This document shows, one piece after another, positions 54,684 through 55,319 of a DNA stretch of 64,000 bases. The stretch covers positions 12,017 through 76,016 of the forward strand of contig JAUYPI010000006.1 in NCBI GenBank assembly GCA_030697645.1, written 5' to 3'. The position numbers were made by a program, and so were the translations under genes. The first letter of the stretch is position 1, and each line of letters starts with the position of its first letter. Origin of the DNA: a bacterium. GTDB taxonomy: Bacteria > Patescibacteriota > Minisyncoccia > Phycocordibacterales > VMGT01. The notes under the pieces were generated by a model, which made no database searches, was not told the origin of the DNA, and saw nothing but the letters and a program-made list of their open reading frames with translations.

Positions 54684-55319
54684 ATGTCTGAAAAGAGGAT
54701 TTATTCAGTAAGTATCTTCGCACATAATACCGGTGAGGTTGCAAAAAATCTTATCGGTATGACCATGGTGGTGGGGAAGCTCGATGCCGTGATACTCGAA
54801 GCAAAGGGGTACTCGCGGAGTGATAACGAAAAGGACGGCCTGTACCGCCCGCTCCTTGACATGAATCCCGGCGAGGTTTTTATACCACCACGTCGGCGCG
54901 GTGTGAGCTTGATCCTCATTGCGACGCATGACCGCGGCAGGCCCGGCGGGTGTGTGCTCATCCGTGCAGGAGAGATTAACGGCGCGGTGTTTGACGGCCC
55001 GGGGAAGCTCTCTCGTGCGCTTGGGATTAACATGCCTGCAGAGGGAACGACTGAGTGGCTCGATGAAGACCGTTTCCGTCTTGTGCTGCGCGGCGTGACG
55101 CTTGTGCCGGAGCTCAAACCAGCGCGACACAAGAAGCGCGAACTCTCTGAGGCAAATGGCAATGGTATCGGCAAGGAAACGATCCGTAAGCATATCCAGC
55201 AAATCGCTCGGCGCTACCTCAAAGAGCGGCCCGCGGGTGTCGACTTCGCAGATTATATCAATGCGCTCTCGGCCCAGTGCATGAGCGCAAAAGAGTTCGC
55301 GTCAATGCTGCGACGGTAG
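54684..55319 (+). CDS. Divergent AAG/MPG-family (3-methyladenine) DNA glycosylase-like protein with C-terminal extension (gene C)
   Basis: 211 aa. EVAKNLIGMTMVV..AVILEAKGY...PGEVFI...GCVLIRAGEI...DGPGKLSRALGI aligns by eye with the bacterial AAG pattern LLG..LV..G.IVETEAY..G..Y.Y...AVLIRA.EP...GPGKL..ALGI. SD GGGAGG. Confidence 0.6.
   Translation: MSEKRIYSVSIFAHNTGEVAKNLIGMTMVVGKLDAVILEAKGYSRSDNEKDGLYRPLLDMNPGEVFIPPRRRGVSLILIATHDRGRPGGCVLIRAGEINGAVFDGPGKLSRALGINMPAEGTTEWLDEDRFRLVLRGVTLVPELKPARHKKRELSEANGNGIGKETIRKHIQQIARRYLKERPAGVDFADYINALSAQCMSAKEFASMLRR

Follow-up and report, generated by a model that had tools for sequence, protein, structure and literature searches.

The window analysed here is a stretch of 64,000 nucleotides from a patescibacterial genome (assembly GCA_030697645.1, contig JAUYPI010000006.1, positions 12,017 to 76,016 of the forward strand). 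Four of its genes, named A to D, lie in one block on the forward strand, with hairpin-rich DNA in the spacers between them. The third of these, gene C, is the subject of this work. A previous reading of the letters alone, made without database searches (the sequence-only reading), had described it as a divergent relative of the alkyladenine DNA glycosylases (AAG, also called MPG). The gene and its parts are given below in coordinates of the window.

54674-54678, + strand: Shine-Dalgarno sequence GGAGG, 5 nt 5' of the gene C ATG (direct reading)
54684-55319, + strand: gene C, 211 amino acids (aa), ATG to stop (open reading frame list)
54708-55097, + strand: AAG-fold domain, residues ~9-138
54804-54806, + strand: codon AAG of Lys41, which aligns with the catalytic Glu125 of human AAG
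54888-54902, + strand: Arg-rich loop Pro69-Arg70-Arg71-Arg72-Gly73, in place of the Tyr159...Tyr162 intercalating loop of AAG
55098-55151, + strand: basic, poorly conserved linker, residues ~139-156 (family alignment; model confidence falls to 84-87)
55152-55313, + strand: C-terminal four-helix module, residues ~157-210

The AAG fold and active-site positions of gene C

The N-terminal ~150 aa had been likened to AAG by eye, and both profile and fold comparisons bear this out. The Pfam family PF02245 (Pur_DNA_glyco) matches gene C with 29.7 bits (gathering cut-off 27; E 5e-7) over residues 11-123 and positions 2-137 of the 181 in the hidden Markov model (HMM), and a three-dimensional fold test places the protein in the AAG fold. 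The last ~45 positions of the model are unmatched, the linker and the four-helix module standing there instead. Among 34 aligned relatives of gene C, 22 matched PF02245 independently (E<=0.01), the best with an E value of 3.6e-11. The earlier reading had called the block SD-bearing, and a Shine-Dalgarno sequence does precede gene C. The exact protein is present at NCBI as MDP3735104.1, under the name 'MAG: DNA-3-methyladenine glycosylase [bacterium]', where MAG stands for metagenome-assembled genome. None of the NCBIfam glycosylase equivalog models was passed by gene C, which scored 11-29 bits against cut-offs of 116-272 (28.9 bits versus 182 for the best of them, and 18.5 versus 116 for TIGR00567). 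A phmmer search of the protein against the PDB returned chance matches only.

The family was collected with HMMER, run exhaustively over 1.84 billion cluster representatives (50% identity clusters); 86 relatives passed a threshold of E<=1e-3, and 55 one of E<=1e-10. Most of the 86 are ~200 aa long and align over their full length; a short form of 125-163 aa, without the tail module, is also present among them. In a word-indexed protein search gene C retrieved only itself, and the family profile retrieved four proteins. Gene C is a divergent AAG-fold member of a distinct subfamily, so far found only in assemblies of Patescibacteria or candidate phyla radiation type.

The residues of gene C were placed in register with human AAG by a HMMER alignment to 1bnk and by a MAFFT alignment with four canonical bacterial proteins carrying the motif ETEAY, and the two alignments agree. 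Columns were counted over 62 relatives. Each line below gives the residue of human AAG, its counterpart in gene C and the state of the column.

Glu123: Glu39; column not conserved
Glu125 (catalytic): Lys41, within EAKGY for ETEAY (HMMER and MAFFT); E 24, Q 16, K 7, R 6, S 3, D 2, G 1, V 1, 2 gaps
Tyr127 (base-stacking): Tyr43; Tyr or Phe in 60/60 aligned relatives
His136: absent, falling in a missing segment of 6-7 residues
Tyr157: Phe66; Tyr or Phe in 57/62
Tyr159: Pro69; Pro in 49/62
Tyr162 (intercalating): Arg72; Arg in 39/62, Met in 8, others in the rest
Asn169: Ile79; Ile, Leu, Val or Phe throughout the column
Arg182: Arg94; Arg or Lys in 50/62

In AAG, His136 and Tyr159 complete the lesion pocket and Asn169 excludes guanine, while Tyr162 is replaced by His in some prokaryotes. 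Of the active-site residues, gene C keeps only the equivalents of Tyr127 and Arg182. The two motif pairs on which the AAG likeness was first noticed (ILEAKGY with ETEAY, and the CVLIRA strand with AVLIRA) are aligned in the same way by HMMER and MAFFT, yet this very alignment sets Lys41, and not a Glu, against the catalytic Glu of ETEAY. Human AAG carrying E125Q binds DNA like the wild type and has no catalytic activity (PMC5363859). At the intercalating position, the flipped state is stabilised in AAG by Tyr162, which acts as a plug (PMC5363859, PMC4227769); Arg72 of gene C, which lies in a loop whose subfamily version reads PRRRN, could still plug the helix. At the two positions that the sequence-only reading had proposed to check, the catalytic Glu and the intercalating Tyr, the alignments give Lys41 and Arg72.

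The Glu125 column is mixed even within the closest relatives of gene C, and a lineage linked to an AlkB-type gene (see below) has Val there. No invariant acidic column is found anywhere in the family alignment. Other columns are fixed: Tyr54, Gly63 and Gly121 are invariant, and the list of invariant or near-invariant positions also includes Pro106, Gly105, Gly88, Cys90 and Asn48. Because the Glu125 column varies and no acid is invariant while these other columns are, the alignment clearly points to purifying selection on the family, yet not for the hydrolytic chemistry of AAG. Since the catalytic residues are largely lost, excision of a modified base, which the sequence-only reading had offered as a role for gene C, is not the activity that we favour.

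The shared helical module and the invariant order of genes B and C

The tail of gene C had been taken for a basic extension of ~60 aa. That description suits the linker; the remainder is a conserved helical module with helices at residues 164-169, 171-181, 188-197 and 202-210 and the consensus GIG..TL.RLMP.I...Y....PG..F..FLN.LL..C..E..LRR.L. Only profile comparison reveals that this tail and the C-terminal half of gene D are homologues (hhalign, 96.6% probability, E 6.5e-10); BLASTP of gene C against gene D gave no match. The tail HMM also picks up the homologues of gene D and, at their N-termini, further cassette proteins of related loci (numbered here with an L): a 606-aa protein with multiple helix-turn-helix (HTH) domains in L008, a 420-aa protein in L009 whose N-terminal module is combined with five DUF4379 treble-clef zinc-finger domains, and a 183-aa protein in L029. 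The ~55-aa module corresponds to no Pfam family, and we regard it as a candidate docking domain.

Related loci were drawn from genomes, metagenomes and assemblies; a hand-made codon pattern for gene C gave 16 matches, 12 of them true and 4 due to chance. A gene C homologue comes directly after every full-length gene B homologue that has readable downstream DNA (the window and L005, L006, L008 and L026-L031). Gene B, in turn, is present wherever a gene C-anchored locus has sufficient upstream sequence, being adjacent to gene C in L003, L004, L020, L022 and L023 and ~3-4 kb upstream of it in L017, L021 and L024. Between the two genes, L024 encodes a multi-HTH protein, a pentapeptide-repeat protein and a MerR-like protein. 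L009 (8015-11520) carries a 707-aa gene B variant without the methyltransferase part, followed by the 420-aa module and zinc-finger protein, and no gene C homologue is found in this locus. In most loci a gene D homologue comes immediately behind gene C; two loci have it immediately ahead of gene B. The invariant order of genes B and C strongly backs a functional tie between the two and agrees with the earlier expectation that gene C is not a stand-alone repair gene.

In one lineage the short form of gene C is directly followed by a gene for an AlkB-type 2-oxoglutarate-Fe(II) dioxygenase (PF13532, E 2.5e-29), at 1734-2378 (- strand) of L021 and 1141-1785 (- strand) of L017, which links the cassette to N-methyl base chemistry. 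The named genome records come from Saccharibacteria, Parcubacteria, Andersenbacteria, Sungbacteria and Uhrbacteria, with one MAG labelled Gammaproteobacteria. Around gene C, the block in the window is built as follows.

47400-47430, + strand: terminator-like hairpin and T run; probable upstream limit of the A-B-C-D unit
47431-47884: spacer 5' of gene A, hairpin array with its loop motif on the opposite strand
47885-49915, + strand: gene A, 676 aa
49916-50573, + strand: A-to-B spacer; hairpins like those of the B-to-C spacer
50574-53705, + strand: gene B, 1043 aa, SNF2-type ATPase fused to a class-I S-adenosylmethionine (SAM) methyltransferase
53706-54683, + strand: B-to-C spacer, 978 nt of ~60-nt hairpins; fold z -7.8 versus shuffled sequence
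55320-55704, + strand: C-to-D spacer, 385 nt with about five like hairpins; z -4.9 versus shuffled sequence
55705-56106, + strand: gene D, 133 aa; residues 67-124 (nt 55903-56076) are the copy of the gene C tail module
56107-56136, + strand: terminator-like GC-rich hairpin directly after the gene D stop; likely downstream boundary

Terminator-like hairpins bracket genes A-D and none occurs between these two, which suggests that the four genes form one transcription unit. Gene B matches the Pfam families SNF2-rel_dom and Methyltransf_11/25/31, and its Walker A (DTGTQKT) and DE motifs are intact. The best PDB match of the ATPase part is 1z63 (E 1e-11, profile search). The nearest PDB relatives of the methyltransferase part are small-molecule enzymes, such as 3sm3, and not DNA amino-methylases; the class-I type to which it belongs also includes ring-nitrogen RNA methylases. 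Near-identical relatives of gene B are labelled Patescibacteria group bacterium. Gene A has no match in Pfam, PDB or PHROG, and in L007, L026 and L028 a homologue of it (BLASTP, 32-39% identity) immediately precedes gene B.

The proposal that the block is probably foreign finds no support. The GC content, GC content at third codon positions and codon usage of genes A-D are within the range of the other genes of the window; no integrase or transposase is seen within the A-D block; gene C has no match in phage and viral-contig collections, nor in PADLOC or PHROG. The genes next to the cassette change between loci, housekeeping genes making up the majority (tRNA synthetases, RuvA, GreA, NusB, ribosomal protein S15). 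L027, from a member of the Sungbacteria and home of the closest gene C homologue, has a Cas12a (Cpf1)-Cas1-Cas2 set and a tyrosine integrase just downstream of its cassette (11453-15909), and an S-adenosylmethionine synthetase gene just upstream of gene B.

In the window itself, the cassette is adjoined by a phosphoenolpyruvate (PEP) synthase gene. A 21-nt loopless inverted repeat at 56256-56297 spans the predicted ATG (56271) of this open reading frame, whose true start may be further downstream.

The spacers on both sides of gene C are indeed structured arrays, as the z values above attest. Each hairpin is ~60 nt long, with stems of 10-14 bp that are all different and loops of 35-45 nt carrying TTYACTA. 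Two copies spaced by 16 nt are frequent, and in 23 of 26 cases a T stands 10 nt past the motif. Except at 47431-47884, it is found on the + strand only, and it is concentrated in the spacers (12.2 per kb, against 1.9 elsewhere). No Rfam family reaches its gathering score on the hairpin spacers, and a relaxed threshold gave one chance match to mir-30. Arrays of like style, with loop motifs of their own, occupy cassette spacers of L027 (3836-4912 and 10121-11109, which hold 13 of the 15 hairpins of the locus), L028 (7446-8000) and L031 (3989-4200 and 7516), and the compact related cassettes are without them. Hairpin arrays are recurrent in these cassettes and not obligatory.

Other repeats were seen in the window. 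At 50177-50215, in the A-to-B spacer, 18 bp form a perfect palindrome (AGACGTCCGACGTCTAAG / CTTAGACGTCGGACGTCT) around a loop of 3 nt, which was scored as a minus-strand terminator. A second, unrelated family of intergenic repeats consists of CAATTTTCAA...TTGAAAATTG inverted repeats about a AAACACGACGTCGT-like core, with copies at 7605-7681, 9667-9726, 10787-10840, 11581-11647, 14194-14275, 14808-14872, 34808-34875 and 37515-37581. They separate many housekeeping genes and surround, among others, the gene of ribosomal protein S4.

A candidate reader subunit and its alternatives

We favour, with moderate confidence, a reading in which gene C serves an SNF2-methyltransferase complex as a non-hydrolytic recognition subunit, built on the AAG fold and attached through a docking module present in several accessory proteins. 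The AAG fold is kept while Glu125, the His136 loop, Tyr159 and Asn169 are lost, which argues for a non-hydrolysing, nucleic-acid-binding reader, and the missing catalytic Glu together with the linkage of genes B and C makes a base-recognising subunit likelier than a repair enzyme. Gene C would bind nucleic acid, presumably DNA, and probably flip a base without hydrolysing the glycosidic bond in the manner of AAG, so acting as the reader of a modified or unusual base. Gene B, with which it would be associated, would provide both motor (the SNF2 translocase) and writer (the class-I SAM methyltransferase). The four-helix module could be the common docking domain that joins gene C, gene D and the multi-HTH and zinc-finger proteins to one complex. 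What the data show directly is the fold, the replaced residues, the common module and the fixed order of genes B and C, while DNA as target, base flipping, loss of catalysis, docking and the contact with gene B are inferred from these.

Several points weigh against this reading. Glu occupies the catalytic position in 24 of the 62 relatives, and some members could therefore be active enzymes. The near-invariant Asn48, Tyr54 and Cys90, or the Glu, Asp or Gln that precedes Asn48, could support an alternative chemistry. The residue mapping of gene C, including the placement of Lys41 in the pocket, comes from sequence alignment. Docking of the module to gene B is conjecture, and the existence of a short gene C form of 125-163 aa without the module implies that the module is not essential to the function of the domain.

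A wider version of the reader hypothesis, which we put forward only tentatively and hold to be doubtful, sees in genes A-D an undescribed machine of Patescibacteria for both modification and surveillance of nucleic acid. Here the non-DNA-type methyltransferase on the SNF2 motor would install lesion-like N-methyl bases, and gene C, as a naturally dead AAG, would read the flipped base. The docking module would recruit interchangeable accessory proteins, whether gene D, multi-HTH or zinc-finger proteins, with an AlkB eraser in one lineage. The lineage-specific hairpin arrays would then be partners encoded in cis, as RNA or DNA.

Among the rival explanations, the one that survives best, although we consider it unlikely, is that gene C is an active glycosylase of non-canonical chemistry, removing a base methylated by gene B in a write-and-excise scheme that would serve restriction-like attack on foreign DNA or erasure of a mark. 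Such a scheme would fit the strict linkage of the two genes and a gene B methyltransferase that is of class-I type and not a DNA amino-methylase, N-methylpurines being substrates of AAG. The AlkB-like demethylase that adjoins gene C in L017 and L021 and the position of one related locus beside a Cas12a CRISPR locus with an integrase also speak for it, and Asn48, Tyr54 and Cys90, near-invariant as they are, could make a new active site. However, the family is without any invariant carboxylate, and the Glu125 position is free to vary (E, Q, K, R, S, V), with Val even in the AlkB-linked lineage. The lack of PADLOC matches, a conserved core without nuclease or apurinic/apyrimidinic lyase, and the mostly housekeeping surroundings of the cassette argue in the same direction.

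Less probable again is the function implied by the NCBI annotation, that of an ordinary DNA-3-methyladenine glycosylase for base-excision repair whose neighbours are incidental. The NCBI name, the AAG fold match and a Pfam match slightly above the gathering threshold are what this explanation can draw on. It would have to accommodate a Lys at the catalytic Glu, the deletion of the His136 loop, the replacement of Tyr159, Tyr162 and Asn169, NCBIfam equivalog scores far below their cut-offs (11-29 bits versus 116-272), and a different module where the last ~45 Pfam positions should be. Nor would one expect a housekeeping repair gene to keep an invariant order with gene B in about 18 loci.

In Met-tRNA formyltransferase (FMT), the homologous C-terminal domain binds tRNA. 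Gene C might in the same way be an RNA-binding domain that recognises the spacer-encoded hairpin loops, perhaps presenting a loop base to the methyltransferase; we hold this to be the most improbable of the explanations, for gene C is nearer AAG than FMT in both sequence and fold, SNF2 motors with HTH and zinc-finger partners suggest double-stranded DNA, and many cassettes are compact and hairpin-free, all this in spite of the strand-specific, highly structured arrays with a conserved loop motif that flank gene C, the like-styled arrays in L027, L028 and L031, and a methyltransferase class that includes RNA methylases.

Comparison with known systems

What is new here is an AAG-fold subfamily without a conserved catalytic Glu, within a conserved cassette of Patescibacteria. 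A literature search for this gene combination found no description of the cassette, which comprises three to four genes: an SNF2-methyltransferase, an AAG-like protein, a small module protein and often gene A. Patescibacteria genomes are tiny, and a retained cassette of 5-9 kb is therefore likely to be important. The common docking-like module and the recurring hairpin spacers offer testable handles on the architecture of the system. The NCBI name 'DNA-3-methyladenine glycosylase' probably overstates the function of gene C, and such over-annotation would inflate the repair capacity inferred for these organisms.

Among known defence systems that pair an SNF2-type ATPase with a methyltransferase and accessory proteins, the cassette resembles DISARM (DrmD with DrmMI). 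It differs in that the two activities are fused in a single protein, gene B, whose methyltransferase is like the small-molecule or RNA-type class-I enzymes and not the DNA N6A, N4C or C5 methylases. The DrmD models of PADLOC and NCBIfam give no better than E 0.034 and 0.084, respectively; DrmA, DrmB and DrmC are not present, and the conserved core has no nuclease.

The C-terminal domain shared by FMT and ArnA shows a structural similarity to gene C that is lower than that of AAG, and it gives no sequence-profile match to gene C. In FMT and ArnA these domains are fused to formyltransferase domains, which gene C lacks.

AAG itself (PF02245; 1ewn, 1bnk) is the closest comparison. Gene C conserves the N-terminal 'F...A..LLG' helix, an aromatic residue at the Tyr127 position, the 'G-x-CVLIR' strand with the equivalent of Arg182, and the 'GPGKL..ALGI' helix. 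It differs in having Lys41 for Glu125, a deleted His136, and Pro, Arg and Ile for Tyr159, Tyr162 and Asn169; in the replacement of the C-terminal ~45 residues of the AAG domain by a linker and the four-helix module; and in its constant place behind an SNF2-methyltransferase gene. Laboratory mutants of AAG offer a parallel, E125Q and E125A binding and flipping lesions without excising them (PMC5363859). The same Glu-to-Gln change is found in 16 of the 62 gene C family members, but here the loss is natural and family-wide and is accompanied by remodelling of the pocket. If our favoured reading is true, gene C would show, in nature, a DNA glycosylase fold put to use as a non-catalytic reader, which is of interest for both DNA repair and epigenetics.
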